Virus record (IMG/VR): IMGVR_UViG_3300028048_000071
Location: 32,001-96,000 of that record
DNA from: a virus
Taxonomy: Duplodnaviria; Caudoviricetes
Strand: one strand, 5' to 3'
DNA: 64,000 nt
The stretch's first letter is position 1; every line of letters starts with the position of its first letter. A program made the position numbers and the translations under genes. The notes under the pieces were generated by a model. The model did no database searches and had not been told where the DNA came from. It saw only the letters and a program-made list of their open reading frames with translations. Positions 5,448-54,735 of this stretch are shown piece after piece.

Positions 5448-6035
5448 GTGATGACAATTTACTTAGACTTTGACAACACTATAGTTGAAAGTAATAAGAG
5501 AATAATAGATATGTTAAATAAAAAATATGGTACATCTAAAACCGAGGATGATTTGTTTGATTATAATTATAATTCTATTTATCCGATTAGTGAAAAAGAA
5601 AAACTTCAAATGTTTGAAAGTGAAGAGTTTTATAATGGATTAGAATTTAAGACCGGGGTTTTAGATGTTTTAAATAAATATAGTCAGTCTTATAATATTG
5701 TTATACTAAGTATTGGTACTGAAGAAAACTTAAGAAGAAAACAAGATTGGTTGAAAAACAACTTACCTTACGACTTTAAATTTATTGGGTTTGATGGAAA
5801 ATCAAAAAAGAAGAGCCGTATAAATATGGATAATGCTATTCAAATAGACGATAATTTTGATTGTTTAAAAACTAATGCTGCTTTAAAAATATTATATAAA
5901 AGTTTTCATAACTTTCCTTGGCAAGAACCGACTTCTAGTGAAGAATTTATGGTGGTGAATACTTGGGAAGAAATAGATTCAATTTTAGATTTTTATAAAA
6001 AGTATAATTGTAAAACATTAGAGAAAATAAGGTAA
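5448..6035 (+). CDS. HAD-family 5'(3')-deoxyribonucleotidase
   Basis: motif I IYLDFDNT, motif IV IDD, FPW; NT5C-like. Confidence 0.75.
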   Translation: MMTIYLDFDNTIVESNKRIIDMLNKKYGTSKTEDDLFDYNYNSIYPISEKEKLQMFESEEFYNGLEFKTGVLDVLNKYSQSYNIVILSIGTEENLRRKQDWLKNNLPYDFKFIGFDGKSKKKSRINMDNAIQIDDNFDCLKTNAALKILYKSFHNFPWQEPTSSEEFMVVNTWEEIDSILDFYKKYNCKTLEKIR

Positions 6036-6049
6036 GGAGGAGATTATTC

Positions 6050-8806
6050 TTGAAGGTTCTTCAGAATTTATATTATGTTTATAAGATACCATCAAATAAA
6101 ATTAACAATTTAAAAACATATAGTTTCAAAGATGCCTCAAGAGATGGTTGTGTGGTATCTATAGGGGATAATTTAGTCTTTGCTAAAATAAGAGAATATT
6201 ATGGGGAAACAGGAGACCATATATCTTTATATAACAAAGTTCAAGATATAAGAAAAGAAATGAAAAATATTAAAAAGCAACCTACTTGTCAAGAAAATAT
6301 AGATAAGTTAAAAGATTTACAACATCAATTAGATAAAATGCTTTTTATAGATGATATAGTTAATATAAAAGTTGTTACAAAAAAAGAATATAAACAAATT
6401 GCAAGAGATGGATTTGATTTAAATGGAAAACATTATGTAAGATTTATGGTTGGTTCTGGTCAAATGAGAAGAAACACTGTAAGTTTTATTAATGAAGAAT
6501 TATATGATTATATGCAAGAACATTTAATGTGTGGATTAGATAAAAAAATAAAGAATATAAATCTTGCAAAATTAAGTGCTTATTTTGCTTTATCTTTTTC
6601 TTCTGTTCTTTGGGTTAGAGAACCAAAGGTTTGTGTTATAAAAGATTTTGATACTGTGATACCAAATCAAAAGCTTAATTTTATCTATAAAGATGATGAA
6701 GGAAAAAATCAGGTTAAAGAGATATATAAAGATTTAAAACTTAATAGCTGTGATGGTCAGGGAATTATAAGTCCGGAAATGGCTCAAAATTGGGCGGAAG
6801 ATATGCACTTAAACTATGTCCCTTGTTCCTTTGTTGTAAGAACAGCATTTGTAAAAGGAAATCTAGTTACATTTGATTTTAAAGAATATGCAAGAGAAAA
6901 TGGTATAACTAAAATTAAGGATAGATATGGAACAGAATATAACATTGATGATATTGATGTATTATTATCGGAATCACAATTTAAAATGGCAAAATATTAT
7001 TCTGCTTGGGAAGGCTATCTAAGTTATCATCATTCTTATAACTTAAAATGGGGAGTAGCAAGATATAACAAAGAATTTGATGATGAATATGTATTGACTA
7101 ATTATCAATATATACAAGTTCTTGATTTAGATAGAGAAGATATAAAAGGATTAGTATCTTGTACAACAGATTGGTTTAAAAATATCTGTAGTGGAGATAA
7201 ATTATATTCTTTAGCTTATAATATAGGAATTAAAAATCCAGAAGATAGTTTATCTGAAATAATTAATTCTTGTGGAAGTGCTTTTACAAAAGCTATTGTT
7301 AAAAATTCAAAAATGTTAGAAGATGGATATGTTCAGAGAAAGATATATAATTCTATTAAAGAATCTATTCGTCAGGCTAAATTAGGAAGAATATGGGTTA
7401 AAGGAAATTATCAATTTATGATAAGTGACCCTATTGCTCAAGTAAGAAATGCCTTAGGTTTATCTCCAGATGGAGAATTGCAGGCAAATGAAGTTTATTC
7501 AAATTTCTGGAATGAAAGAAATGTTTCTGGAGAGGTTTGTTTGATGAGAAGTCCATTGACTCATTATTCAGAAATAAATGTTGAAAGATTAGCGAAAACA
7601 AAAGAAATGGAAAAGTGGTACAAATATATTTATAGTGGTGTCATTTATAGTATATATGATATTGCTACTGTTAAGCACGCAGATTCAGATTTTGATGGAG
7701 ATATAGTTTGTTCAACTAATAATGAATATTTTTTGAAGGGTGCTATGAGAAATGAAATTCCTATTACTTATGAAAAAGAAATGGTTCCTACTCAAAGAGT
7801 AACATTACCTAATTTTATTAGATGTGATGTTAAAGGATTAGATACTAAAGTTGGACAAATAACTAATTATTCAACAAGTATGATAGCTATGCTTCCATTG
7901 TTCAAAGGAGAAGGTCAACAAGAGCAGCTTCAAGAAATGCAAAAAAGAATAAAATTGCTTAGAGAAATACAAGGAGCAGAAATAGATAAAATTAAAGGGA
8001 CTACCCCACCTCAATTTCCTAGAGAATGGAGATATTGGGTTAAAATAGACAAAGATGATGATGATATAACTAAAGCAGAGAAATATAAATATAATTCAAT
8101 GGTTGTTAAGAAAAAACCTTATTTCTTTATTTATTTATATTCTACTTTGATGAAAGAATATAAAGCGTATGAAAAAAACTTTAATAGTATTAGTTACAAA
8201 CATTTTGGAATGTCTATTAAAGATTTATTAAGAAAAGAAAATAGGTCTGAAGGAGAAAATAAACTAATTAGAAAATATAGAAAATATTCTCCTGTGTTAG
8301 AAACAGATTGTGTTATGAATAATTTATGTAAAGAAGTAGAAAGTTCTGATTCTGATATTAAATTTCATCCAAGCAAGATTAGTTTATTAAACGAATTTGC
8401 AGATTATTCTAATATAGACGAAGAAAAATTAGTTACTCTGATGGATATATGTAAAACATATAAATCAGAAAAACAATTCAGAGGATTTTCTGCTATGATA
8501 GAAAATGAAGGAATTGCTGATGATGACGTTGCCGAAATTATGAATCAAGTTTTATACGGGCATAAAGATAAATATAGGGAAAAAATTAAAAACCTATTTA
8601 GCAATACCAGAGAACTTTTTAATCATTTAATGATGATGTGTCAAAGAAAAAATATTAATCACGATATAGTTTGGGATATAATGGGAGACGACATAATAGA
8701 TATTATACCCGTTTGTAATCCTACTGTTTTGATAGAAGATGATTATGGTGTTGAATATTTAGGACATAAATATCAATTACAGGAGGTGGATAATGTTAGT
8801 ATTTGA
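6050..8806 (+). CDS. yonO: single-subunit RNA polymerase, YonO-like (eukaryotic RdRP-related double-psi-barrel)
   Basis: CDGQG, KGNL, RSP and catalytic DFDGD motifs in RdRP/YonO order; 918 aa; upstream of late genes as in SPbeta. Confidence 0.85.
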   Translation: MKVLQNLYYVYKIPSNKINNLKTYSFKDASRDGCVVSIGDNLVFAKIREYYGETGDHISLYNKVQDIRKEMKNIKKQPTCQENIDKLKDLQHQLDKMLFIDDIVNIKVVTKKEYKQIARDGFDLNGKHYVRFMVGSGQMRRNTVSFINEELYDYMQEHLMCGLDKKIKNINLAKLSAYFALSFSSVLWVREPKVCVIKDFDTVIPNQKLNFIYKDDEGKNQVKEIYKDLKLNSCDGQGIISPEMAQNWAEDMHLNYVPCSFVVRTAFVKGNLVTFDFKEYARENGITKIKDRYGTEYNIDDIDVLLSESQFKMAKYYSAWEGYLSYHHSYNLKWGVARYNKEFDDEYVLTNYQYIQVLDLDREDIKGLVSCTTDWFKNICSGDKLYSLAYNIGIKNPEDSLSEIINSCGSAFTKAIVKNSKMLEDGYVQRKIYNSIKESIRQAKLGRIWVKGNYQFMISDPIAQVRNALGLSPDGELQANEVYSNFWNERNVSGEVCLMRSPLTHYSEINVERLAKTKEMEKWYKYIYSGVIYSIYDIATVKHADSDFDGDIVCSTNNEYFLKGAMRNEIPITYEKEMVPTQRVTLPNFIRCDVKGLDTKVGQITNYSTSMIAMLPLFKGEGQQEQLQEMQKRIKLLREIQGAEIDKIKGTTPPQFPREWRYWVKIDKDDDDITKAEKYKYNSMVVKKKPYFFIYLYSTLMKEYKAYEKNFNSISYKHFGMSIKDLLRKENRSEGENKLIRKYRKYSPVLETDCVMNNLCKEVESSDSDIKFHPSKISLLNEFADYSNIDEEKLVTLMDICKTYKSEKQFRGFSAMIENEGIADDDVAEIMNQVLYGHKDKYREKIKNLFSNTRELFNHLMMMCQRKNINHDIVWDIMGDDIIDIIPVCNPTVLIEDDYGVEYLGHKYQLQEVDNVSI

Positions 8807-11738: not shown

Positions 11739-13504
11739 TGGCAGTAAATATAAAAAAAGTTAGAAAGGGTGTAGAAGCTCAAAAATCTTGGGGATATGAT
11801 AACACTGATTCTCCATTGAGTTATGACCCTATTAATGAAGAAAAAATTGATTATGAAGAATGGACTAAATTCTTATCATACTATAGATATTATGTTGATG
11901 AATTTGCTGTAGACATATTAGGAATGACTAATTTGTTCCCATTTCAAAGACTTTTATTAAGAGCAATGGGAAAATTTCCAAACATAATGTTTATAATGTG
12001 TAGAGGTTTAACAAAATCATATATTGCTGCAATATTTATTTGTTGTATGGCTATCTTATATCCAGGTATGGCAATAGGAATTGTTTCTGGAAATGGTAAC
12101 CAAGCAAGAATGGTTGTTAAACAGAAAATAGAAGGGGAATTATGTAAAAACGAAAATATTAAAAGAGAAATTAAAAGTATAAAAACAAGTTTAGATGATT
12201 GTATTGTTACTTTTAAAAATGGAAGCTCAATAAGGGCTTTTACTTTGGGTAACAATCAAAAAGGAGATAGTTCAAGAGGTTGGAGATTTCAACTTATATT
12301 AGTTGATGAAGCTCGTCTAGTTAAAACAGAAGCATTAAAAGAAGTTTTAATACCAATGACTAAAACTCCAAGAACTAATGCAATAGATTTAAAAAAGAAA
12401 TTTCCAGAGGCTCCTTATGAAGAAGGACGAATGGTTTATATTTCATCTGCTTGGTTAAAAACTTGTGATTTATATCAAAGATTCTTAAATTTCTATAGTC
12501 AAATGACTTCGGGTGATAAAAACTATTTTGTTGCAAGTCTTGATTATAGAGTAGGTATAGATGCTGGATTATTTACAGAAGAAAATATGATGTTAGAAAA
12601 AAATGACCCAGAGATGACTTTAGATAAATGGGCTTATGAATATGAAGGTCGATTTGTTGGAAGTGCAAATGATAGTTATTATCCATATGATATAACTTCA
12701 AAATGTAGGTCATTAGATAGATGCGAATTAGAACAACCTAAAAAATGTCAATATAGATATATTGTAACGCACGACGTTGCTGTATCTGGTAAATCAGGTT
12801 CGGATAATTCCTGTACTCACGTTATAAAATTAATACCTAAAAAAAATGGTACTTTTACAAAACAAGTTGTTTTTACAAAAACAATGAATGGGGCTACTTT
12901 AAAAGAACAAAGAGATTTCTTAAGAGAGCTTATTCATATTAGATTTCCTAATACGGATAAATTAGTAATAGATGCTCAATCTGCTGGACAGGGTTTATTA
13001 TCATTGTTAGAAGAACCTTGGACTGCAAGAAATAATAGAGGAGAAGTAGAAGAGTTCCCTCCATTAATTTGTGATGACGATGAAGAAGCACAGATACTAT
13101 TACCGGATGCTGAACCTCTAATAAGAGGAATAACTGCAACACAAGAATTTAACAGCACTTTTTATCCATATATGAAAAGTGGTTTTGAAGATAGAAGTCT
13201 ACAATTATTGGTAGATAGTAGTGAAACAGATGAAGCATATAAGAGTGGTAAATATAGACCAGAAGAACAGGTAGTTCACGTTGAGCACGATAGCTTAGTT
13301 CAAGAATTAAGTAATATAAAACAATCATATTCTGAAGGTGGTAAAATAATTTATACCAGAATAGTTAAAAGTAAAAAAAGAGACCGTGCAACAAGTTTAA
13401 TGTATGGTTTATCTGTTGTTTGGGAATATGAAAAACAAGGAAAAGCAGATATGTATAAAAAAGAGGTAGACCCTCTTGCATATTTAAAAAAATATATATA
13501 TTAA
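11738..13504 (+). CDS. terL: terminase large subunit
   Basis: LFPFQ adenine motif, degenerate Walker A CRGLTKS, Walker B LVDEA, YISSA coupling motif, nuclease HDVA...KRDRATS. Confidence 0.9.
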   Translation: MAVNIKKVRKGVEAQKSWGYDNTDSPLSYDPINEEKIDYEEWTKFLSYYRYYVDEFAVDILGMTNLFPFQRLLLRAMGKFPNIMFIMCRGLTKSYIAAIFICCMAILYPGMAIGIVSGNGNQARMVVKQKIEGELCKNENIKREIKSIKTSLDDCIVTFKNGSSIRAFTLGNNQKGDSSRGWRFQLILVDEARLVKTEALKEVLIPMTKTPRTNAIDLKKKFPEAPYEEGRMVYISSAWLKTCDLYQRFLNFYSQMTSGDKNYFVASLDYRVGIDAGLFTEENMMLEKNDPEMTLDKWAYEYEGRFVGSANDSYYPYDITSKCRSLDRCELEQPKKCQYRYIVTHDVAVSGKSGSDNSCTHVIKLIPKKNGTFTKQVVFTKTMNGATLKEQRDFLRELIHIRFPNTDKLVIDAQSAGQGLLSLLEEPWTARNNRGEVEEFPPLICDDDEEAQILLPDAEPLIRGITATQEFNSTFYPYMKSGFEDRSLQLLVDSSETDEAYKSGKYRPEEQVVHVEHDSLVQELSNIKQSYSEGGKIIYTRIVKSKKRDRATSLMYGLSVVWEYEKQGKADMYKKEVDPLAYLKKYIY

Positions 13505-13524
13505 AGGAAGGTAGGTGAATAAGA

Positions 13525-15195
13525 TTGAGTAATAAAAAGGTTAAATCTAATACGGAGACTAATTTAACAGAAAAACAAGTAATAGAAGTTCTACAAGCAT
13601 ATGATAAAGCTTTAAATATTAGAGATAATCAAATTGCAAATGGCGTTTTTGATGTAACAGCATTTTCTAAAGGTATGGCTGATGCAGGAGCATTTACTCC
13701 ATATACACAAAATGAAATAATGAAAAGAATTAATATTGCTACGAATAGTGCTCCAGATGGAAAAAAAATAGATGAAGCATTATCTAATCCAATTGATAAT
13801 GAAGGTAATTTAGTTAATTATGGTCAATCTTATTATTTCAGTAGTTTAATGTATAAACGAAATCAAGAATATCTAGCAAACCTACCTGCGTTTGATTTAG
13901 AAATATCTTGTATTAATGCAAAACCAGAAGACTACAAAACAAATAAATATAAAAATGATTATGAAGAAATTAAAAAATTTATTAATTCTTTTAACTATAG
14001 AGAGCAATTCAAAAATATTGCTTGGAATATAGTTATGAATGAAACTTATTATGCAATGTTTAGAGAATTAGGAGATAAGTCTGTTATCCAAGAATTCCCT
14101 GCTAAATATTCTATGATTACTGGTAAATGGGAATATGGTCTTTTATATGATATAGATATGAATTGGTTCCTTCAGGGGGAAGTAGATATTAATTGTTATC
14201 CTGATTGGGTAATAAAAAAATATAAAGAAATGTTTGATGGTAAAAAAGAAAAACCATATATTCCAAGTAATAAGATAAATAAGAGAACTGGTACTTTTGG
14301 ATTATGGACTCAAACAGACCCTGCAGATGGATGTTGGGTTTTTAAATTTAATCCTAATCATAATTTACAAGTTCCATTTTTTTCTGGAATGTTACCAGAA
14401 ATGGCTGTCCTTCCAATATTAAGAAACCTACAAGTTAATCAAAGTATGGCTGCTGCAAGAAAATTATTAGTTTCTTCAATACCATATTTAAATGAAAAGA
14501 AGGCTGCTAGTGTAGCAAATCAATTAGCTATAGATGCAGATACTTTAGGTAAATTTATTGGACTTGCAACTCAAGGATTAGAGGCTGCAATTAAAGTATT
14601 AGCTTTACCAACTGAAGACATTAAAGGTGTTGAATTTAAAAACACTGATAGTGATACTTATGAAACATTTATGACTTTAACAAGTTCTTTATTAAGTGGT
14701 GGTAAAGTAATATTTTCAACAAGTGAAAATCAAAATGCAATAGAAACTCAATTTTCTATTGATATAGATAGAATGTTAATTAAATCTATATATCCTCAAT
14801 TTGAAAACTTTTTAGAATACTATGCAAATAAACATACTAAAAAATTCAAATGGGCATTTAGATTTGTTGGAACAAATGATAAATTTGATAGAGAAGCTAG
14901 ACAAGATGAGGCATTTAAATATGCTGATAAAGGAGTTGTTCTTCCAAATAAAATTGCTTCATCATTAGGAATGAATAAAATAGAATTAGAGAGAGAATTG
15001 GAAGAGATGAACGCTAGTGACTTTATTGATAAATTAAGACCTATGATTAATATTTATACTCAAGGAAATGTTACTGCTGGTTCAACACCAAATAATGGTG
15101 CTGGAAGACCTCAAGTTAAAGATGGGGATTTAACTAATAGTGGCAGTGAGACCAGAGATAAAGGGTCTAATATAGAAAAAGGTGGAAACCTATAA
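13525..15195 (+). CDS. portal protein (YonE-like)
   Basis: 556 aa directly after terL; GAGRP C-terminal motif typical of this portal group. Confidence 0.8.
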   Translation: MSNKKVKSNTETNLTEKQVIEVLQAYDKALNIRDNQIANGVFDVTAFSKGMADAGAFTPYTQNEIMKRINIATNSAPDGKKIDEALSNPIDNEGNLVNYGQSYYFSSLMYKRNQEYLANLPAFDLEISCINAKPEDYKTNKYKNDYEEIKKFINSFNYREQFKNIAWNIVMNETYYAMFRELGDKSVIQEFPAKYSMITGKWEYGLLYDIDMNWFLQGEVDINCYPDWVIKKYKEMFDGKKEKPYIPSNKINKRTGTFGLWTQTDPADGCWVFKFNPNHNLQVPFFSGMLPEMAVLPILRNLQVNQSMAAARKLLVSSIPYLNEKKAASVANQLAIDADTLGKFIGLATQGLEAAIKVLALPTEDIKGVEFKNTDSDTYETFMTLTSSLLSGGKVIFSTSENQNAIETQFSIDIDRMLIKSIYPQFENFLEYYANKHTKKFKWAFRFVGTNDKFDREARQDEAFKYADKGVVLPNKIASSLGMNKIELERELEEMNASDFIDKLRPMINIYTQGNVTAGSTPNNGAGRPQVKDGDLTNSGSETRDKGSNIEKGGNL

Positions 15196-46664: not shown

Positions 46665-47768
46665 ATGCAACTATTAAGTACATTAAATAGTCTTGATAAT
46701 GTTGCTGATGGTTCTACAAGAAAGCTTCTTAAAACCGCCACTTCAAGCGGTTCTGGGAATGCAGTAACCGCAGTTAGCATATCAGGCGACACTTTAACTT
46801 ATACATTAGGTTCATCGTTTTCATTGAGTAATCATACTCACGATGCAGCCACAACGTCTGCAGCTGGTTTTTTATCAGCCGCAGACAAAAAGAAATTAGA
46901 TGCAACTTCAGGTTATTATGGAACTTGTAGTACAGCAAAAGGGACTGCCGCAAAAGTTGTTGATTGTAGTAATTATGTTTTAGCAACTGGTGCAGTTATT
47001 TATGTCAAATTTACCAACGCCAATGAGTATAATGGTACTGCGACATTAAATGTTAATGGTACTGGAGCAAAAGATATTGCTAGAGTAGGTACAACAAAAA
47101 CAACCAGATATTATTGGAGTGCAGGAGAAGTAGTCGGTTTTGTATATGATGGTACAAATTATATAATAATTGAAAGAGGAACTGCCTCAACTACTTATTA
47201 TGGTGTTACAAAATTAATAACAACCGCAACAAATACATCTGAGGCTTTGGCGTTAACTCCAAAAGCATTAAATAATTTTGCACAAAATATGATTGCTAAT
47301 TATGCAGTATATTCATCTTCTTCTACCTATAATGTAGGAGATAGAGTTAGATATAGTTATAATACATATGAATGTATAGTGGCTATTTCAACAGCAGAAG
47401 CGTGGACTGCAGCTCATTGGAAGGCTTTAGACCCTTTACAAACACAGATAGATGAAAAATCTGAGGTTTCTATAAGTAGGAATTTAACTTCTGGAGAAAA
47501 AATAGGTACTATAACTATAGATGGAACAGCAACTGATTTATATGCTCCTGCTACAGGTAGTGTTAATACGTCTTTGGCTAGTCCACAACAAACATATTAT
47601 TTAACAGGAGTTCAAACAACTGCTGCTGGGCAAGGTAATTTATATAATAGTTATTTGTCTAGTACATATACAGGAATAAAATATGTAACTTCTACTTCTC
47701 AAGAAGGTGGAAGTTTATATGTAGACGACAGAGAAGTCGTTACAGGATTATATTATGAAATTTCATAA
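46665..47768 (+). CDS. tail fibre protein with CBM5/12-like module
   Basis: ATTSAAGFLSAADKKKLD, VKFT.AN...TLNVNGTGAK, TYNVGDRV.Y...YEC...W...HW. Confidence 0.72.
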   Translation: MQLLSTLNSLDNVADGSTRKLLKTATSSGSGNAVTAVSISGDTLTYTLGSSFSLSNHTHDAATTSAAGFLSAADKKKLDATSGYYGTCSTAKGTAAKVVDCSNYVLATGAVIYVKFTNANEYNGTATLNVNGTGAKDIARVGTTKTTRYYWSAGEVVGFVYDGTNYIIIERGTASTTYYGVTKLITTATNTSEALALTPKALNNFAQNMIANYAVYSSSSTYNVGDRVRYSYNTYECIVAISTAEAWTAAHWKALDPLQTQIDEKSEVSISRNLTSGEKIGTITIDGTATDLYAPATGSVNTSLASPQQTYYLTGVQTTAAGQGNLYNSYLSSTYTGIKYVTSTSQEGGSLYVDDREVVTGLYYEIS

Positions 47769-47792: not shown

Positions 47793-50027
47793 ATGGCTAC
47801 AGTTAAGTTTTATAATGATAAAGAAAAAACTCAACAAGTATATCCAGAAATTGACCCAGATGGAAATTATCCTGGTGTCACAGTTGGACTTGCCAATAAC
47901 CTTGTTTCACCAGACGGTATAAATGATATAGATACTTGGCAATATCGTTCAACTGGTGGAGAACTTGATATTACTGATGGATATGCAACATTAAAGAAAC
48001 TTATTGGTACAACTGAATCTTCAACTATAGAAGAAAGTCTAACACATAACTTAATTACAACTGGTGTAACTTCTGTAACTGTTGATACAAGTACATTTAA
48101 AAGTCAAATAAGTACAAGTGGAACATATAATTTTATATATACTCCAACAATTACTTATTCATCTGCTTTAGTATATTCATTAAATAAAAGCACTTTTGCT
48201 AATTATGTAAGTCAAGCAACTGGAACATATACATTTACTTATACTGCTGTTGTTTCACCAGTAGATACATCTAGTGTTATACAAACTTTTACACAATCAA
48301 CATTTGTTAACAAAGTAAATGAAACACCAGATACTTATACATTTACATATAATGGTTCAAATTGGCAATTAGATGGAACAAACGTAACAATGAGTCAATA
48401 TGGTATTACAACAAAAGGAACTGAAACAAGTGGAACAACAATTACTGTTTATTATACAAGTAATTCTTGGTATTACAATAATGCCTCAATTTCTATGAGT
48501 AATTATGGTATTTCAACAACTGGCTCTGAATCTGTTGGAGACACAATTGCTATATCTTATACATCTAATGACTGGATGTTAAATAACACTGCAATAACAC
48601 TTGCTGATTACGGAATTGTAATTACAGGAGGAACTGCAGCAATTGACGATAATATTCAAATAATATTTATTGCTGAACAAGTAGGTGTAATTCAAACTGC
48701 AAATCCAACTGGATTATATAGTGTTGGAATGAACCAATTTAATAAAGATGGTTCTCAAATATTTAGAAATTATACATTAAATTCATCTGGTGGAATAAGT
48801 GCGGCAACTGGATATTATGTAATTTATTTTAAATGTATAGGAGGAGAAACTTATACTATTTATAATGAAACACCTTCATCTACTGTTAGAGTTGGTTATA
48901 GTGCAACTATCCCAACTACATCAAGCACTGTTACATTATTAAGTACAGTTTCATCATCTGAATGGGCTGATGTTCTAGTTAATGACTCATATAAATCACA
49001 CTATTATCCAAATAATCCTGGATATTTAGTTGTTGCGACAAGTGACATTGAAAATTTATGTTGTCATTTAACTTGGGAAGCAGTAAAGGATGATGTATAT
49101 GAATCTTATTTTAATTATACATTACCTATTCCATACACTGATAAAAATGGAGATGTAATAACAACTTATGGTTTAGTAAACTTAGATGATGGTACTCAAT
49201 ATTATGATGAAATAAATTTTGAAGACCTTAAATGGTATAAGAGAACAACTAGAATTGAATATAGTGCTGAAAACTTGGCAACTGTTCAAGCATTAGGTGT
49301 TCCATATTTATATGATGCAAATTGGATTTATTATGGTGTTAATACAGTTGAATATAACTTAGAAGACGTTTCTTATTCATATGAAATATCAAACTATGGT
49401 ACTGAAGAGTTTATTAACTCTGCATTGCCATTAACTGCAACAATATTCTATCAAGAAAACTTAAGAGATAAAATAAGATTCTCTATGGAAGTTATTGATA
49501 ATAAAGTTGAGAAAATTGATAGTGCTTCTACTTATACAAAATATTCAAGTGCAAAAGCATCTTATAACCTAGATAAAGCATTAAGACATATACTTGGTCT
49601 TGATGTAGATACATTCTCAACAAGCAGCACTTATGCTGTTGGTGATTATGTTGTATACGATGGTAAATTGTGGAAATGTACCACTGCCGTAACAAGTGCA
49701 GGAGCTTGGACTGGTAATGGATTATCTGTTAGAAGTAATAATAATGGAATATTACTTGATATGGACACAACTAAATTTTTAAAATTCTTAGATTCAGATA
49801 GACCTGGAAGTCCTTGTGGAATTCCTGAACTTTATGCAAATGATGGCGGTACATACCAAATTCATTTAACATATGCAACAACATCAAACGATTATCACTT
49901 CGCTAATGCTGCTGAATTAGAAGAACAAACTGGTCTTGTAGTAAGTAGTGCAACTGGTGGAGTATCATTTAGTTATAATAGTTCTTCTGCAAATTGGGAA
50001 GAATCATATTTATTTAAAGCAAATTAA
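47793..50027 (+). CDS. large tail fibre/baseplate protein with C-terminal CBM5/12-like module
   Basis: internal W...T/SMS.YGI repeats; STYAVGDYVVYDGKLWKC; last gene before cassette array. Confidence 0.72.
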   Translation: MATVKFYNDKEKTQQVYPEIDPDGNYPGVTVGLANNLVSPDGINDIDTWQYRSTGGELDITDGYATLKKLIGTTESSTIEESLTHNLITTGVTSVTVDTSTFKSQISTSGTYNFIYTPTITYSSALVYSLNKSTFANYVSQATGTYTFTYTAVVSPVDTSSVIQTFTQSTFVNKVNETPDTYTFTYNGSNWQLDGTNVTMSQYGITTKGTETSGTTITVYYTSNSWYYNNASISMSNYGISTTGSESVGDTIAISYTSNDWMLNNTAITLADYGIVITGGTAAIDDNIQIIFIAEQVGVIQTANPTGLYSVGMNQFNKDGSQIFRNYTLNSSGGISAATGYYVIYFKCIGGETYTIYNETPSSTVRVGYSATIPTTSSTVTLLSTVSSSEWADVLVNDSYKSHYYPNNPGYLVVATSDIENLCCHLTWEAVKDDVYESYFNYTLPIPYTDKNGDVITTYGLVNLDDGTQYYDEINFEDLKWYKRTTRIEYSAENLATVQALGVPYLYDANWIYYGVNTVEYNLEDVSYSYEISNYGTEEFINSALPLTATIFYQENLRDKIRFSMEVIDNKVEKIDSASTYTKYSSAKASYNLDKALRHILGLDVDTFSTSSTYAVGDYVVYDGKLWKCTTAVTSAGAWTGNGLSVRSNNNGILLDMDTTKFLKFLDSDRPGSPCGIPELYANDGGTYQIHLTYATTSNDYHFANAAELEEQTGLVVSSATGGVSFSYNSSSANWEESYLFKAN

Positions 50028-50049
50028 TGAATGAAAGGAGAATAATTTT

Positions 50050-50211
50050 ATGTTAGAAATAATTAAATCATTCTTCTCCCCTGTAGGGGGGGGCGAACAA
50101 GCTTCGCTTCACAGAATGGAAATATACAAAGGAAGGAGGATTTGCGTCAAGAGTATAGTAACTCTTCAAGCAATTCCGACTTCAATAGAAAGAGAGGTGA
50201 AGAGTATCTAA
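50050..50211 (+). CDS. leader peptide 1 of cassette-selection bank (53 aa in current G8 state; not in ORF track)
   Basis: GAAAGGAG SD; MLEIIKSFFSPV-GGG-EQ...EVKSI*; one extra G fuses it to the 50142-50486 frame. Confidence 0.8.
   Translation: MLEIIKSFFSPVGGGEQASLHRMEIYKGRRICVKSIVTLQAIPTSIEREVKSI
50086..50093 (+). repeat. poly-G tract 1 (G8), candidate phase-variable switch
   Basis: G8 after codon 12 of leader 1 in an AT-rich genome. Confidence 0.9.
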
Positions 50212-50291
50212 AATCTTCTTATGGAAGATTTGCAGATGGAAGCAACGCTTCTGTCTTAATCTCTTCATCTTTCGCAAGTGAAAATATCGTA

Positions 50292-50300
50292 GGGGGGGGG
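50292..50300 (+). repeat. poly-G tract 2 (G9)
   Basis: GTA-GGGGGGGGG-C in frame in extended leader. Confidence 0.9.
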
Positions 50301-50426
50301 CAGCTACGCTCGAATAATTATTCAGCAAGCAGTCGCTCTTATAAAGGAGGTGAAGGCAATTACGCTAGCTTAATGTCTAGTGATTTTGCCGGAACCGAGA
50401 CAATGTTAAACCCTGACCGCATAGTC

Positions 50427-50435
50427 GGGGGGGGG
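50427..50435 (+). repeat. poly-G tract 3 (G9)
   Basis: GTC-GGGGGGGGG-C in frame in extended leader. Confidence 0.9.
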
Positions 50436-50582
50436 CGAAATCCATTTGGATTCGTCTTCAAAGAAAGGGGGCAAGCCACTATTTAGACTTGCCTCTTATA
50501 CACGAAATGATTTCTCTTTCAAGAAGGGAGGTGCAGGCTTAACAGTCTGTACTCCTTTTTATTATGAAGGAGGTGTGTGTTA

Positions 50583-50966
50583 ATGCAAATTAATAAAGAC
50601 CTTATTATTAGTGGAACTAATATGACTTTAGGCGATACAGCCTATAAAGATATATATTCAACAACTGAAACCAAGACTAATAAGGTTTGGATTGATGGTC
50701 GTACTATATATAGAAAGGTTATTACTGGAAATTTATCTCAGGCACAATGGAATCACGGAATAACTTTTGATACTATTGTTTCTATAGAAGGTGTTTTTAT
50801 AAATACTAATTCTGGTAATACATTTAATATACCTAGTACAAGACCTGATTTTCCTGATTATCAAGTTGGTGTATTTGTGAATAATACATTTATAACTTTA
50901 GAACGTGCTACTGGTGCTCAACGTGCGGATATGAGTTTTTATGTAGTTTTAGAATATGTGAAATAA
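50583..50966 (+). CDS. cassette 1: tail-tip/receptor-binding module
   Basis: MQINKDL N-terminus; YSTTETKTNKVWIDGRTIYRKV fibre-tip domain; own SD AAGGAGGTG. Confidence 0.75.
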   Translation: MQINKDLIISGTNMTLGDTAYKDIYSTTETKTNKVWIDGRTIYRKVITGNLSQAQWNHGITFDTIVSIEGVFINTNSGNTFNIPSTRPDFPDYQVGVFVNNTFITLERATGAQRADMSFYVVLEYVK

Positions 50967-50995
50967 CACACACAACAGGCTAACAGCCTAACATT

Positions 50996-51403
50996 ATGGC
51001 TAAATTTACAATTAATAAAGACTTCTTTGTAGGTGATACAAATTATTCTTTAGAGGATATTCCTTTTGGAGTAGAACCCGAAGTCCCATCTAATCAAAAT
51101 TATTTTAAATTTGGGAATATGATGATTTGTTGGGGTTGGAGAAACGTAACTTTAAACTGGAATGGGAATGGAGCTTATGCTGATTTTAATTTAGCAAACG
51201 ATGGAACTCCATATAAAGATACTGCATATAGAATTGTTGGGAGTTATGCTGGAAGCACAGCTTATTATGCAGGAAACTGGTGCTGGTTTGAAAGCAAAGG
51301 GACGACAAGTGCAAGAGTAAATTGCTGGTGTGAACAAGCTAATAAACCAACATCTATTATTATAGGTTTTATAGCCATTGGAAGATGGCGTGATGCTGAA
51401 TAA
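50996..51403 (+). CDS. cassette 2: gp53-C-like tail-tip module
   Basis: TINKDF N-terminus; YFKFGNMMICWG...FIAIGRW; no local SD. Confidence 0.72.
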   Translation: MAKFTINKDFFVGDTNYSLEDIPFGVEPEVPSNQNYFKFGNMMICWGWRNVTLNWNGNGAYADFNLANDGTPYKDTAYRIVGSYAGSTAYYAGNWCWFESKGTTSARVNCWCEQANKPTSIIIGFIAIGRWRDAE

Positions 51404-51439
51404 AAACATTTCGTGATGAGCAAGCCTTTTGGCGAACTT

Positions 51440-51850
51440 ATGAAGATTAATAAAGATTTAATCGTAGAGGGTACAAATCATACATTAGAAGATATACCTT
51501 TTGATATTGATTTATCTGATGTGTATTCTACAAATGAAACAAAAACAAATAAGGTTTGGATAGATAACAGACCTATATATAGAAGAGTCGTTACCGGTAC
51601 AGTTACCGCTGCAGGTCAAGGACAAACTGTAACCACTATAAGTAATATAAGACAAATCTTGACTATAAGAGGAGTTATGTATTCTAATTATGGTCAATGG
51701 TGGAATATTCCTAATTATCACGGAGAAGCAGGATATGTAAATTCCATATACTGCGATGCAAATGGAAGAGTCAATTTAGGAGTTGGGAACTTTTATAGTG
51801 CCGGTAAACCTTTTATAATTATTTTAGAGTATACAAAATCTACTGACTAA
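51440..51850 (+). CDS. cassette 3: tail-tip module (paralogue of cassette 1)
   Basis: MKINKDL start at 51440; YSTNETKTNKVWIDNRPIYRRV...LEYTK; no local SD. Confidence 0.75.
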   Translation: MKINKDLIVEGTNHTLEDIPFDIDLSDVYSTNETKTNKVWIDNRPIYRRVVTGTVTAAGQGQTVTTISNIRQILTIRGVMYSNYGQWWNIPNYHGEAGYVNSIYCDANGRVNLGVGNFYSAGKPFIIILEYTKSTD

Positions 51851-51886
51851 CATTGTCTGAACGGCAAAAAAAATAATGCCGATTCT

Positions 51887-52309
51887 ATGAAAATAAACAA
51901 AGACTTAATTATTAGTGATACAAATTATACTTTAGGAGATGTTGCTGATTTTATATCAAATAAAATAGAAATTAAAGAGCTTGCTTCTACAACAGGAAGT
52001 GGCGAAAACATTACAATAGATTTGACCGATAGTTATAAAAATTATGACTTTTTATTAGTTCAATGGAGTCCATATTCTTTATATGGGAATATTGATTTTT
52101 ATATTATAGATACTGCTACAATTTTATCTACACAATATGGAAATTATCCTTATGAAACCGGACACCTTCAAACAACATCAGTATGGTCAAATGTCGTATT
52201 TGGCTTTTCATCAACAACTAGATTTATAGCTAAATGTGCAAATACAGGAACTTGGGGAAAAGGTTCTTTTAAAATAATTTCTATTAAAGGAATAAAATTA
52301 CCTCACTAA
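51887..52309 (+). CDS. cassette 4: tail-tip module
   Basis: MKINKDL N-terminus; LTDSYKNYDFLLV...IKGIK; no local SD. Confidence 0.72.
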   Translation: MKINKDLIISDTNYTLGDVADFISNKIEIKELASTTGSGENITIDLTDSYKNYDFLLVQWSPYSLYGNIDFYIIDTATILSTQYGNYPYETGHLQTTSVWSNVVFGFSSTTRFIAKCANTGTWGKGSFKIISIKGIKLPH

Positions 52310-52354
52310 TCACATAATAGAGCGACCGCTCGTAAATGAGCAAAAGCGAATTAA

Positions 52355-52732
52355 ATGATTATAAACACAGATTTAATCTACCCTATCGGTAGTATATATT
52401 TAAGCGTCAACGCAACCAATCCGTCAAAGTATTTTGGCGGAGCTTGGGAGCAAATTACATCAGACGCATATTTAAAGATAGTAACTCAAAATGCTGGTTC
52501 TTTAGGTGGAACCAGTGTAGACCACAAGATACCTATTGAAAGTATGCCTAGTCACGACCACGGTGTGTACGGAGCATTAACTGGAGAAAATAAACCTATT
52601 ACCAATACTGGTAATGATTGGGGAGTTAATACAACACACGGATGGACTACAAATGCCATTTCAAAGACTGGCGGTGGACAGGCTTACTATCCTTATTACT
52701 ATGGCGTTTATGTTTGGAAAAGAACTGCTTAA
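52355..52732 (+). CDS. cassette 5: gp10-C/tail-collar-like module
   Basis: MIINTDL-IYPIGSIY...FGGAWE...MPSHDH...VYVWKRTA; no local SD. Confidence 0.78.
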   Translation: MIINTDLIYPIGSIYLSVNATNPSKYFGGAWEQITSDAYLKIVTQNAGSLGGTSVDHKIPIESMPSHDHGVYGALTGENKPITNTGNDWGVNTTHGWTTNAISKTGGGQAYYPYYYGVYVWKRTA

Positions 52733-52775
52733 ATATACTCTCTTATGATGTTTTGAAGATTTAGATACAAATCTT

Positions 52776-53165
52776 ATGATTATAAATACAAATATGTTGT
52801 TAGCAGCCTATCCTGTAGGTTCGCTATATTTAACAACAAATGAAATAAACCCAGGAACCTTATTTGGTGGAACCTGGGAAAAATTGACTGGGGATGCTTA
52901 TCTTAAAATAGTGACAAGTAATCCTGGTCAATATGATGGTACGTCAGACCAACATAAAATACCTATCAATAGTATGCCTTCTCACAGACACGGTAATAGA
53001 GTTACTTTAAATATGTCTCAAGGTGCTGGTCAAGATAGAAGCCTTGTAGTTGGTGGAGGTCAAGTATGGAATACTGCGGACAATTATCAAAATCAATTTG
53101 TTGGTGGTGGACAACCTTATTATCCATATTATTATGGTATTTATGTTTGGAGACGTACAGCATAA
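52776..53165 (+). CDS. cassette 6: gp10-C/tail-collar-like module
   Basis: MIINTNML-AYPVGSLY...FGGTWE...MPSHRH...WRRTA; no local SD. Confidence 0.78.
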   Translation: MIINTNMLLAAYPVGSLYLTTNEINPGTLFGGTWEKLTGDAYLKIVTSNPGQYDGTSDQHKIPINSMPSHRHGNRVTLNMSQGAGQDRSLVVGGGQVWNTADNYQNQFVGGGQPYYPYYYGIYVWRRTA

Positions 53166-53193
53166 TCGGAATTGCTTAATGCAATAAAACTTT

Positions 53194-53367
53194 ATGAAAA
53201 ATATTTTATTAAATAAAATCCTTCACATCGGGGGGGGGCAGAAATGTCTGCTCTTCACAAGAAAGGAGGGTTGGCTATTATTTTGTAACGTCAACTCTTC
53301 AAGGAATGGAGGTGGCAGACATTTAATATCTGCTATCTCTTGTGGAGGTGTAATCTTATGCAAATAA
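53194..53367 (+). CDS. leader peptide 2 (57 aa in current G9 state; not in ORF track)
   Basis: MKNILLNKILHI-GGG-QK...ILCK*; no local SD; stop lies just inside cassette 7 start. Confidence 0.72.
   Translation: MKNILLNKILHIGGGQKCLLFTRKEGWLLFCNVNSSRNGGGRHLISAISCGGVILCK
53230..53238 (+). repeat. poly-G tract 4 (G9)
   Basis: ATC-GGGGGGGGG-C after codon 12 of leader 2. Confidence 0.9.
53230..53361 (+). promoter_or_regulatory. RBS bank 2: three SD modules
   Basis: AAAGGAGGG 53262, GGAGGTG 53308, GGAGGTG 53344; first two in hairpins without a cassette ATG. Confidence 0.8.
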
Positions 53368-53750
53368 ACGTAGATTTAATATATCCTATAGGTTCTTTAT
53401 ATTTAACAACGTCTACTGTATCACCAGCAGTTTTGTTTGGTGGTACTTGGGAACGCATTAAAGGTAGATGTATTGTAGGTGTAGACGAAAATGACACCGA
53501 CTTTAATACTGTTAGTAAAACCGGCGGTGAAAAAACACATACATTGACTGTGGATGAAATGCCAGCACACAATCACAATATTCAAGGTGCGATGAATGGT
53601 GCTTCTGGAAGTAGTTGGTGTGTTGCTTTAAATAGTGATAGAAGCGTAAACTGGTCTATCACTAATGGGTCACAAAATAAAGGTGGTGGACAAGCACATA
53701 ACAATCTACAACCTTATTACACTGCTTATATATGGCGAAGAACCGCATAA
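53358..53750 (+). CDS. cassette 7: gp10-C/tail-collar-like module
   Basis: MQINVDL-IYPIGSLY...GGEKTHTLT..EMPAHNH...AHNNLQPY...WRRTA; own SD. Confidence 0.8.
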   Translation: MQINVDLIYPIGSLYLTTSTVSPAVLFGGTWERIKGRCIVGVDENDTDFNTVSKTGGEKTHTLTVDEMPAHNHNIQGAMNGASGSSWCVALNSDRSVNWSITNGSQNKGGGQAHNNLQPYYTAYIWRRTA

Positions 53751-53781
53751 GATTACTTAGATATTAAATTGTCGAATAATT

Positions 53782-54159
53782 ATGAAAATAAACTTAGATT
53801 TTATATATCCTGTTGGAAGTATTTATATGAGTGTTAATGCTACAAATCCAGGAATTTTATTTGGAGGAACTTGGACTCAATTAAAAGATAGGTTCTTACT
53901 TGGTGCTGGAAATACATATTCCGCTGGAGATACTGGTGGAGAGGCAACTCATACGTTAACTTATAATGAAATGCCTCAACATAGTCACACATTGTATAAT
54001 GAAAATGCAAGTGGATGGACTTTAAGTAAAGCATCTTTAAAAACAGGAACAAATAAAGGATATTCTGGTAATATCCAAATTGGAGATGCTGGAGGTAATC
54101 AAGCACATAATAATATGCCTCCATATCTAGTAGTCTATATGTGGAAAAGAACTGCATAA
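53782..54159 (+). CDS. cassette 8: gp10-C/tail-collar-like module
   Basis: MKINLDF-IYPVGSIY...GGEATHTLT..EMPQHSH...WKRTA; no local SD. Confidence 0.8.
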   Translation: MKINLDFIYPVGSIYMSVNATNPGILFGGTWTQLKDRFLLGAGNTYSAGDTGGEATHTLTYNEMPQHSHTLYNENASGWTLSKASLKTGTNKGYSGNIQIGDAGGNQAHNNMPPYLVVYMWKRTA

Positions 54160-54205
54160 ATTATTTTGACAAAAAGAGTTGACACTAAAATAATAGTGTT
54201 ATAAT

Positions 54206-54634
54206 ATGAAAATAAATGAAGATTTAATAATTAATGGAACGGATTTAAATTTAAATGATATAGTACAAAAAATATCGGCACTTGAAAAATATCAAGTAGA
54301 ATATAATGCTGATTCAATTACTTTGACATTTACAAATAAATATCCTTGTATAGCAATTACATATATGTCTCACGCAGGATGGGGATTTGGAGGAAATGAA
54401 TGGATTTGGAATGCTGATTTAACTAATTCTGTTCATTTAGGTTATACTAAAGCCTATGTTAATGGTAATGACTTATTATCAAGATTTATGAGTTCTGTGT
54501 CAATTAACTATTGTCCAACTGCGGGAGTAGAACATACAACTGTAAGAACTACAACCAAGGGTAACTCTGGTAATAGCAATGGACAATCAGTATGTGTTAT
54601 TTGTTTACCATTAATAACTAATTCAAAAGAATAA
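54206..54634 (+). CDS. cassette 9: tail-tip module of a different type
   Basis: MKINEDLIINGT N-terminus shared with cassettes 1,3,4; no local SD. Confidence 0.68.
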   Translation: MKINEDLIINGTDLNLNDIVQKISALEKYQVEYNADSITLTFTNKYPCIAITYMSHAGWGFGGNEWIWNADLTNSVHLGYTKAYVNGNDLLSRFMSSVSINYCPTAGVEHTTVRTTTKGNSGNSNGQSVCVICLPLITNSKE

Positions 54635-54656
54635 TTATAAGAAATAGAGTAAAATG

Positions 54657-54701
54657 AAAGGGGAATAACTTAACTAAAATTTTTGTTATTTCCTTTTTTT
54701 T
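54657..54701 (+). terminator. intrinsic terminator ending the late/cassette operon
   Basis: AAAGGGGAATAAC...GTTATTTCCTTT then T run. Confidence 0.7.
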
Positions 54702-54706
54702 ACCGC

Positions 54707-54735
54707 TTGACATTATCTTCTTTTTGTGCTATAAT
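54707..54735 (+). promoter_or_regulatory. sigma-A promoter for modification/replication operon
   Basis: perfect TTGACA-17 bp-TATAAT with extended TG. Confidence 0.88.

Follow-up and report, generated by a model that had tools for sequence, protein, structure and literature searches.

A candidate translation-level selector of tail-tip genes governed by repeat length in an uncultured phage genome

A 64,000-nt stretch (hereafter the window; positions 32,001 to 96,000) of the complete uncultured virus record IMGVR_UViG_3300028048_000071 (132,932 bp, 30% G+C) contains a 4.6-kb block on the + strand in which two short leader open reading frames (ORFs), carrying four poly-G tracts, are interleaved with nine small ORFs, here termed cassettes. 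The record represents an uncultured gut or rumen phage of about 133 kb. Analysis of this block and of related loci makes it probable, in our judgement, that the locus is a heritable and reversible selector that acts at the level of translation and expresses one gene of many. The block lies downstream of a gene encoding a 744-aa fibre protein (47793-50027, CBM_5_12) and consists of leader ORF 1, six cassettes, leader ORF 2, three further cassettes, a hairpin followed by a T-run, and a promoter (Table 1).

Frame-dependent stops in two leaders

Leader ORF 1 has its own Shine–Dalgarno (SD) sequence (-9.0 kcal, 8 nt from the ATG), and its longest form comprises 177 codons ending at TAA 50581-83; the chance of such a frame being open at this base composition is about 4e-8. 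The four tracts lie inside the leader ORFs and are the only G/C runs of at least seven nucleotides in the window, as revealed by a run scan that reproduced the four poly-G tracts in two leaders reported in an earlier reading of this DNA (hereafter the original prediction). In the whole 132,932-bp record, G runs of eight or more nucleotides are likewise confined to the four leader tracts, against about 0.14 expected by chance. The window, which is 70% A+T, contains no A/T run of nine or more and no other simple repeat; by a rough estimate, several A9/T9 runs would be expected from its composition. Slippery runs seem to be avoided everywhere in the window except in the two leaders.

When the length of each tract was varied by script, each length class led either to a stop of its own or, for G9 in tracts 1 and 2, to a frame that reads on (Table 1). 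Altogether, there are 10 such leaf stops, nine for the cassettes and one for a relay, leader ORF 2. Every stop derived by hand in the original prediction for a given tract length was matched by the script, and the overlaps that it described with cassettes 1 and 7 are present, with the minor correction that the ATG codons are those at 50583 and 53358, the latter located 7 nt before the stop at 53365. The tracts are perfect long repeats whose length alters the reading frame, as in simple-sequence-repeat contingency loci. Since tract 1 is G8 in the window, the stop of module B is the one used in the present genome state.

Table 1. Features of the array in window coordinates. Tract lengths in brackets are those that lead to the stop; c, cassette; SD, Shine–Dalgarno sequence.
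Feature	Position	Strand	Leaf stop (tract length)	Predicted address pairing	Remarks
Leader ORF 1	50034..50583	+			own SD AAAGGAG 50034-40; ATG 50050; end set by tract state
Tract 1	50086..50093	+			G8; 8, 9, 10 or 11 in sister strains
Module A	50131..50184	+	TAG 50156-58, in hairpin loop (tract 1 G7/G10)	50168-79 with 53166-77, leader 2 spacer; 12 perfect pairs	SD GGAGG, then hairpin AAGAGT/ACTCTT; selector 50168-79
Module B	50190..50232	+	TAA 50209-11 (tract 1 G8)	50204-18 with 52755-68, c6 spacer	SD GAGGTG; selector 50204-18
Tract 2	50292..50300	+			G9; 8-10 in sister strains; sole SD-like run before the stop of module C
Module C	50301..50339	+	TAA 50315-17 (tract 2 G10)	50318-39 with 52319-39, c5 spacer	selector 50318-39, core GTCGCTCT 50332-39
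Module D	50343..50408	+	TAA 50371-73, in hairpin loop (tract 2 G8)	50384-408 with 51848-69, c4 spacer (50384-91 with 51862-69; 50398-408 with 51848-58)	SD GGAGGTG 50346-52; selectors 50384-91, 50398-408
Tract 3	50427..50435	+			G9; 8-11 in sister strains
Module E	50463..50513	+	TAG 50484-86, at hairpin apex (tract 3 G9)	50485-513 with 51403-27, c3 spacer	SD AAAGGGGG; selector 50485-513, core CACGAAATG
Module F	50518..50562	+	TAA 50540-42, in hairpin loop (tract 3 G10)	both arms exchangeable with 50974-96, c2 spacer hairpin; weakest pairing	SD GGGAGGTG, sequestered by ACTCC
Module G	50564..50585	+	TAA 50581-83 (tract 3 G8)		SD GGAGGTG, then TAATG stop/start overlap with c1
Cassette 1	50583..50966	+			127 aa; own SD; no family match; grouped with c3 (YST-ETKT-WIDG-IYRK)
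Cassette 2	50996..51403	+			135 aa; SD-less
Cassette 3	51440..51850	+			136 aa; SD-less
Cassette 4	51887..52309	+			140 aa; SD-less
Cassette 5	52355..52732	+			125 aa; SD-less; Gp10_C tip domain
Cassette 6	52776..53165	+			129 aa; SD-less; Gp10_C; predicted selected in current state
Leader ORF 2 (relay)	53194..53367	+			SD-less ATG 53194, addressed by module A; carries tract 4
Tract 4	53230..53238	+			G9; in leader ORF 2
Module H		+	53286 (tract 4 G10)	53274-99 with 54174-97, c9 spacer	in leader ORF 2
Module I		+	53324 (tract 4 G8)	53318-32 with 53758-73, c8 spacer	in leader ORF 2
Module J		+	TAA 53365 (tract 4 G9)		in leader ORF 2; carries SD and ATG of c7
Cassette 7	53358..53750	+			130 aa; own SD; Gp10_C, E 1.7e-29
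Cassette 8	53782..54159	+			125 aa; SD-less; Gp10_C
Cassette 9	54206..54634	+			142 aa; SD-less; weak jelly-roll match
Closing hairpin and T-run	54650..54712	+			read by eye; loop too long for terminator scan
Promoter	54707-54735	+			perfect sigma-70 type, TTGACA-17-TATAAT with TG extension; opens next unit of small ORFs

The stops differ from the cassette starts in the distribution of SD sequences. An SD-like sequence of -10 to -12.5 kcal against the anti-SD was found 6-19 nt upstream of nine of the 10 leaf stops, a duplex strength of -10 kcal being reached at only 1.75% of random window positions. The original prediction had placed an SD-like sequence shortly before each stop; this stands as far as strong sequences are concerned for those nine, while the one in module B is weaker (-7.5 kcal), and the only SD-like sequence upstream of stop 50315 in module C is the G tract itself. 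Leader ORF 1 and cassettes 1 and 7 carry SDs of -9 to -12.5 kcal located 7-8 nt from their ATG codons. No SD was detected at the starts of cassettes 2-6, 8, and 9 and of leader ORF 2, where values of 0 to -3.5 kcal correspond to background, although 64% of the genes in this genome carry a strong SD, with a median SD-to-ATG distance of 7 nt in ordinary genes. Since SDs precede stops while the distant starts have none, eight orphan SD/stop modules face eight SD-less starts.

To characterise local structure, 47 nt around each leaf stop were folded, in the window and in relatives described below. In five lineages, 29 of 30 leaf stops are located at the apex of a local hairpin (-9 to -20 kcal) or next to it; in most cases the 5' arm contains the SD, which pairs with a CUCC/CUUC stretch of the 3' arm. 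In the window, this arrangement of the stop at or next to the apex was found for all modules but B (9 of 10), and the spacers before the cassettes folded into weak structures only. The stem of module A reads AAGAGT/ACTCTT in some close strains and CAAGGT/ACCTTG in others, and that of module B GAAGAG/CTCTTC or GGAAG/CTTCC; the predicted hairpins of both modules are therefore kept through compensatory swaps of whole stems. A terminator scan identified module F as the only terminator-like module, the others having no T-run. Its hairpin, followed by CCTTTTTATT (50530-50562), scores as intrinsic-terminator-like inside leader ORF 1, and could provide an extra transcriptional layer just before cassette 1.

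Addresses, natural variation and relatives

Exact-complement and local pairing searches of modules against the spacers upstream of the SD-less starts revealed a specific partner for each of the eight modules (Table 1), the complementary part of a module being the apex of its hairpin and the flank on the 3' side. The pairs are strictly nested, the first module pairing with the farthest spacer. In the window, seven of the eight modules have the nested partner as their best match, and the nested assignment is the unique optimum among all 40,320 permutations (1/40,320), which backs the stop-to-cassette mapping of the original prediction. An unconstrained fold of the 4.6-kb array recovered four of the eight predicted helices, namely C-c5, D-c4, E-c3, and H-c9. 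The start regions of the two SD-bearing cassettes pair instead with their own 3' ends (50573-82/50964-73 for cassette 1 and 53350-61/53745-56 for cassette 7). Adjacency of stop and start, as in termination-reinitiation, is present in the primary sequence for these terminal leaves only (TAATG 50581-85; ATG 53358/TAA 53365), with an SD 7-8 nt upstream, and the eight distant starts would acquire it only via the predicted helices. In the fold of the whole array, the tract 2 region 50281-50297 (AAAAUAUCGUAGGGGGG) also pairs with the CU-rich cassette 6 spacer 52738-52754 (17 pairs including G-U); a change in tract length could also modulate an RNA helix, provided that this modelled pairing is real.

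An exact look-up of the cassette 2 protein found it on at least 23 public contigs, of which seven were read (L105-L111). The lengths of tracts 1/2/3 are 8/9/9 in the window, 9/9/10 in L105, 10/9/9 in L106, 9/8/9 in L107, 10/10/9 in L108 and L111, 9/9/11 in L109, and 10/10/8 in L110. Further relatives have 9/9/11 (L008) and 9/9/8 (L014 and L018), and tract 1 of L016 is 11 nt long; tract 4 is G9 in the window, L008, and L112, and G8 in L113. All four tracts are polymorphic among natural strains and hypervariable. Contigs L105, L107, and L109, originating from three different samples, are identical across 7,544 aligned columns save tracts 2 and 3, and their predicted states are cassettes 2, 4, and 1, respectively. 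Two contigs of the L009 lineage, about 99.5% identical as judged by eye, differ in tract 3 (G8 versus G10). Natural genomes occupy at least five of the predicted states (A, B, D, F, and G).

Relatives were sought by fibre- and cassette-based searches in viral, metagenome, and genome collections. The closest, L008 (92% fibre identity), has the same four tracts and the same 10-leaf layout with some cassette bodies replaced; its nested partners are best in row for seven of eight modules, and none of 20,000 random permutations was as good as the nested assignment. Four contigs with 74-75% fibre identity (L009, L010, L011, and L101) have three tracts and seven leaves for seven cassettes, and all six of their pairings are nested, with unrelated helix sequences. 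In L017 (Ga0265301_10000148; 55% fibre identity), a (CAAT)8 repeat in leader 1 and G9 in leader 2 give 3+3 leaves for a relay and five cassettes, and four of four pairings are nested. Two loci found via a cassette extend the series: L023, with (AAGC)8 and (ATAC)15, again has 3+3 leaves for a relay and five cassettes and four of four nested pairings, and L022, with (ATAC)14, has three leaves for three cassettes, the B-c2 pairing being clear and A-c3 being only a 7-bp match seen by eye. A third locus found in this way, L021, carries (CAAT)13 and (AC)9 in one leader (5770-7900). Two of its spacers are near-copies of the window's cassette 8 and cassette 3 spacers and are present without a matching module, and from its sequence it looks like a recombinant, mosaic, or decaying selector.

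The nested partner ranks first for every module compared in L011 (6/6), L017 (4/4), and L023 (4/4), the nested assignment is the unique optimum in L011 (1/720), L017 (1/24), and L023 (1/24), and the number of leaves equals that of cassettes plus relays in the window, L008, L011, L017, L022, L023, and the seven-cassette sister strains. Between lineages the helix sequences are wholly different, and the repeats are of five types: poly-G, (CAAT)8-13, (AAGC)8, (ATAC)14-15, and (AC)9. The logic survives full turnover of both helix sequence and repeat type, as selection on the mechanism predicts. The comparative test set out in the original prediction, that the mapping should persist despite sequence change, gave seven of seven leaves and six of six pairings in L011, five cassettes plus a relay and four of four pairings in L017 and L023, and three of three leaves in L022. 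Among 80 loci (939 kb) encoding related tip domains, such repeats were present in only the three closest, always in a leader ORF directly upstream of tip cassettes. DNA pattern scans based on the tract flanks returned only members of the lineages already found and one irrelevant G12. With its hierarchy of two leaders, the array of the window is the most elaborate example encountered.

The phage of the window uses the standard genetic code. In the 112-kb contig L017, where the locus occupies 12537-14923, TGA is read as Trp, and only table 4 keeps the cassettes and several large genes open; the leader stops of L017 are all TAA or TAG.

Comparison of close strains also shows that one slot is filled in different ways. 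The slot addressed by module A holds leader ORF 2 with three cassettes in the window and L008, whereas in most sister strains the same spacer core, TCGGAATTGC, is followed by a seventh cassette: a 267-aa MKINTDFIYPDGW protein in L105 (6257-7024), L107, L108, L109, and L111. In L106 (6259-7221), the slot contains a GDSL-lipase protein, and the TCGGAATTGC-type address is kept. As this slot otherwise holds an ordinary cassette, the relay bank of the window is an add-on plugged into an ordinary slot.

Proposed hand-over and alternative explanations

The sequence-based parts of the original interpretation are supported throughout, and from them we infer the translational hand-over and the strict one-of-nine exclusivity. 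Replication slippage would alter the length of the four G runs; run length modulo 3 sets the reading frame and thereby which of the 10 stops ends leader translation. A hairpin not reached by a ribosome would stay closed and silent, and one read through in another frame would reclose behind the ribosome. A ribosome terminating at the apex would have melted the SD arm and would then be poised much as for initiation, the SD lying 6-19 nt upstream of the stop. By way of the long-range helix, the addressed ATG would come to lie beside the freed SD, and the same or a new small subunit would initiate at that cassette only. Cassettes 1 and 7, the terminal leaves, would be reached by ordinary stop/start coupling, and one leaf of leader 1 would address leader 2, where the choice would be repeated for cassettes 7-9. 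Each tract state would yield a virion with a different adhesin, and, given tract 1 of G8, cassette 6 is predicted to be on in the genome at hand.

In its complete form, for which we see the chances as evenly balanced, the locus would be a digital demultiplexer, with the repeats as ternary digits, the frames decoded as stop positions, and RNA address helices by which the terminating ribosome or the freed SD is routed to a single adhesin gene among up to nine; a second decoder would be fed by one of the outputs. Such a device would provide heritable, reversible, and mutually exclusive switching of host range with no recombinase and with gene order unchanged, and its slots would be swappable between strains.

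Several observations weigh against the proposed selector. Module F and the cassette 2 spacer pair weakly (-17.2 kcal; versus shuffles, p about 0.05), and cofolding with the 5' half of the module blocked or free revealed no uniform ribosome-dependent gain in long-range pairing. In the predicted helices, the SD and the start flank the same helix end, a split ribosome-binding site (RBS) geometry. By-eye estimates for six "type 1" modules put the SD-to-ATG path across that end at about 11-13 nt, as compared with the 7-nt median of ordinary genes; in the A and D sub-helices, the path is 8 nt. The stop codon itself is part of the long-range helix in many modules, and such a helix cannot exist while a ribosome terminates there, so that the hand-over has to come after termination. 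With five leaves for four cassettes and one clear pairing, L021 is an exception to the 1:1 rule. No significant match to a family or solved structure was obtained for cassettes 1-4 and 9 in Pfam, PHROGs, and a PDB sequence search. Finally, homopolymer lengths in metagenome assemblies can be miscalled, but the identical flanks of strains differing in tract length and the tetranucleotide analogues in relatives argue against an assembly artefact.

The nested helices could alternatively act by occlusion, building split RBSs constitutively, while leader ribosomes melt the modules that they traverse. Tract state would then set, as on a thermometer, a subset of cassettes: those with modules downstream of the leader stop would be on and those with upstream modules off. 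The SD-helix-ATG geometry is workable without a termination event, the nested helices are mutually compatible, and cofolding often gives a net long-range gain even in the free state. Nevertheless, we regard this explanation as unlikely. In L011, L017, and L023, the helix of the first module contains its own stop, so every leader ribosome would melt it in all states and its target would never be on; moreover, the SDs are buried in strong local hairpins, the stops are at apices rather than between modules, and the start-codon-like distance from SD to stop is left unexplained.

A simpler possibility is that the tracts gate only cassettes 1 and 7, where the only textbook coupling signals are found, and that the other cassettes are translated independently and weakly, the complementarity serving folding, stability, or processing of mRNA. 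Binary leader switches of this type exist (PMC3894217). We consider such plain coupling distinctly improbable, because it does not explain the presence of one orphan SD and one stop per alternative frame, the recurrence of one-to-one nested addressing in five lineages with unrelated sequences, the equality of leaves and cassettes at loci with 3, 6, 7, and 10 leaves, or the maintenance of SD-less starts in a genome in which strong SDs prevail.

Transcription attenuation, with module hairpins acting as terminators or antiterminators set by the reach of the leader ribosome, is proven for the streptococcal pil1 locus, and the hairpin and T-run of module F (50530-62) would suit it. It appears very doubtful here: only one of 10 modules has a T-run, and the addresses are nested and extend up to 3 kb, while termination inside the leader would remove all downstream cassettes from the transcript and make long-range addresses pointless. 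Equally hard to credit is non-heritable spreading, whereby polymerase or ribosome slippage on the G runs in each infection would produce a fixed mixture of all tips per burst. G9 runs can support some transcriptional or translational slippage, but the tetra- and dinucleotide repeats of the relatives act via DNA slippage, and genomes that are otherwise identical already differ in tract length in their DNA. Shufflon-like DNA rearrangement is scarcely believable: module/spacer pairs are indeed inverted repeats at the DNA level, yet they are short (8-14 bp) and all different with no common core, and an inversion at these repeats would bring no SD to a start codon. All 11 related contigs share one gene order, and the ORF and Pfam tables of the locus list no recombinase. 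We also considered ribosomal bypassing ("hopping"), in which a ribosome would leap from a leader stop to a cassette, and dropped it, as the shared sequences are complements of each other instead of matching codons and 0.4-3 kb would have to be crossed.

Cassettes, genomic setting and known systems

Cassettes 5-8 match Gp10_C (PF21939) with E-values of 7e-11 to 2e-29, the C-terminal domain of T4 gp10 in PDB (E about 1e-9), and the C-terminal ends of tail-fibre PHROGs. In the Streptococcus prophage Javan271, a 623-aa protein that carries the annotation of a membrane protein has the Gp10_C domain at its C-terminus; its gene is located between a tail-fibre gene and the holin/lysin genes, upstream of the latter. 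For the cassette 3 group, a protein atlas offered only viral hypothetical clusters and a weak Gp53-like_C lead. The original prediction had described all nine as receptor-binding cassettes; homology supports this role for four of them (5-8), and for the other five, which have no family match, it is presumed.

Despite their unrelated bodies, all nine cassettes start with M-(K/Q/I)-I-N-x-D-(L/F)-(I) (MKINxDLI type) or a close variant within the first 8-10 codons, which suggests a shared docking peptide or a common initiation region. Judging from the sequences, this N-terminus may serve to dock the cassette proteins on the fibre or the baseplate, or its A-rich codons may be required for initiation at SD-less starts. 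The cassettes are probably small tail-tip proteins that fit one docking site.

The gene just before the fibre gene (46665-47768) has a Phage_fiber_2 domain in public gene calls of sister contigs, and the 497-aa gene preceding it has matches to tail-fibre and decoration PHROGs. Together with the fibre gene, these two genes form a multi-gene fibre module that has the selector at its distal end. Searches of GenBank phages matched neither the DNA of the locus nor, at the protein level, the 744-aa fibre, and no Rfam family matching the locus was found.

Individual elements of the proposed device have precedents. In the Min Jou interaction between the coat and replicase genes of the phages MS2 and Qbeta, long-range pairing couples translation. 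As in the present locus, a start is controlled by pairing hundreds of nucleotides away and ribosomes on that segment change the outcome, but this is a single pair that activates by unmasking, with no repeat tracts, frame code, or choice of target. Hairpin-bridged ("split") RBSs are known from T4 genes 38 and 25, and the calicivirus termination upstream ribosome-binding site (TURBS) is a termination-reinitiation element. In these cases, too, an SD or rRNA-binding motif is brought to the start across a helix, or the small subunit is held for reinitiation; however, the known helices are local and constitutive, whereas the loops closed by the helices proposed here would measure 0.4-3 kb, and their use would hinge on the leader stop.

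Of the documented mechanisms, the leader-peptide switch of Streptococcus gallolyticus pil1 comes nearest; in it, the length of a repeat in a leader ORF sets how far the ribosome reaches and whether a hairpin is remodelled, giving a binary switch via a transcription terminator (Danne et al. 2014, PMC3894217). The likeness of pil1/pil3 to our locus lies in a slippage-prone repeat placed in a short leader rather than in the structural gene, in repeat number setting ribosome reach, and in the stochastic, heritable control of a surface structure; the phage leader, like that of pil1, is a translated ORF with its own SD and contains the repeat. In contrast, pil1 switches between high and low via an adjacent terminator, whereas in the phage only module F resembles a terminator and the other modules, which have no T-run, are complementary to distant spacers. 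The choice in the phage is 3- to 10-way with up to four tracts in series and a relay, long-range pairing specifies targets at distances of up to 3 kb, and control is presumed to be translational.

Among phages, the poly-G tracts in receptor-binding genes of Campylobacter Fletchervirus are hypermutable (Sorensen et al. 2021, Cell Rep 35:109214; cited in PMC11868660). These contingency tracts similarly give subpopulations with different receptor-binding phenotypes, but the tract is inside each receptor-binding coding sequence and acts as an independent on/off switch, with no leader, orphan SD bank, addressing, or exclusivity. A 2025 preprint on phage contingency loci likewise concerns on/off frameshifts within genes. 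Alternation of receptor-binding tips within one phage genome is also achieved by the invertible tail-fibre segments of Mu (Gin) and P1 (Cin), by shufflons, and by diversity-generating retroelements (cited in PMC12823448), which switch host range by means of a recombinase or reverse transcriptase that rearranges or mutates DNA, whereas here only repeat length changes and the order of genes is fixed. Full-text literature searches and a 2025 review of phase variation revealed no description of a multi-way, RNA-addressed leader selector, in line with the original prediction, whose author knew of no such architecture.

The system lends itself to direct tests, since the complete device fits into about 4.7 kb of RNA and no phage-specific protein is required. 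If the proposed selector is real, it would constitute a new class of gene choice beside inversion, gene conversion, and retrohoming, in which the frame of a leader serves as a multi-valued heritable memory read by long-range RNA addressing, and it would offer a compact natural design for one-of-N expression switches. It would also bear on the prediction of host range from metagenomes and on the population dynamics of phages and their hosts, and would explain why large gut and rumen phages carry many alternative adhesins, of which one is displayed at a time.

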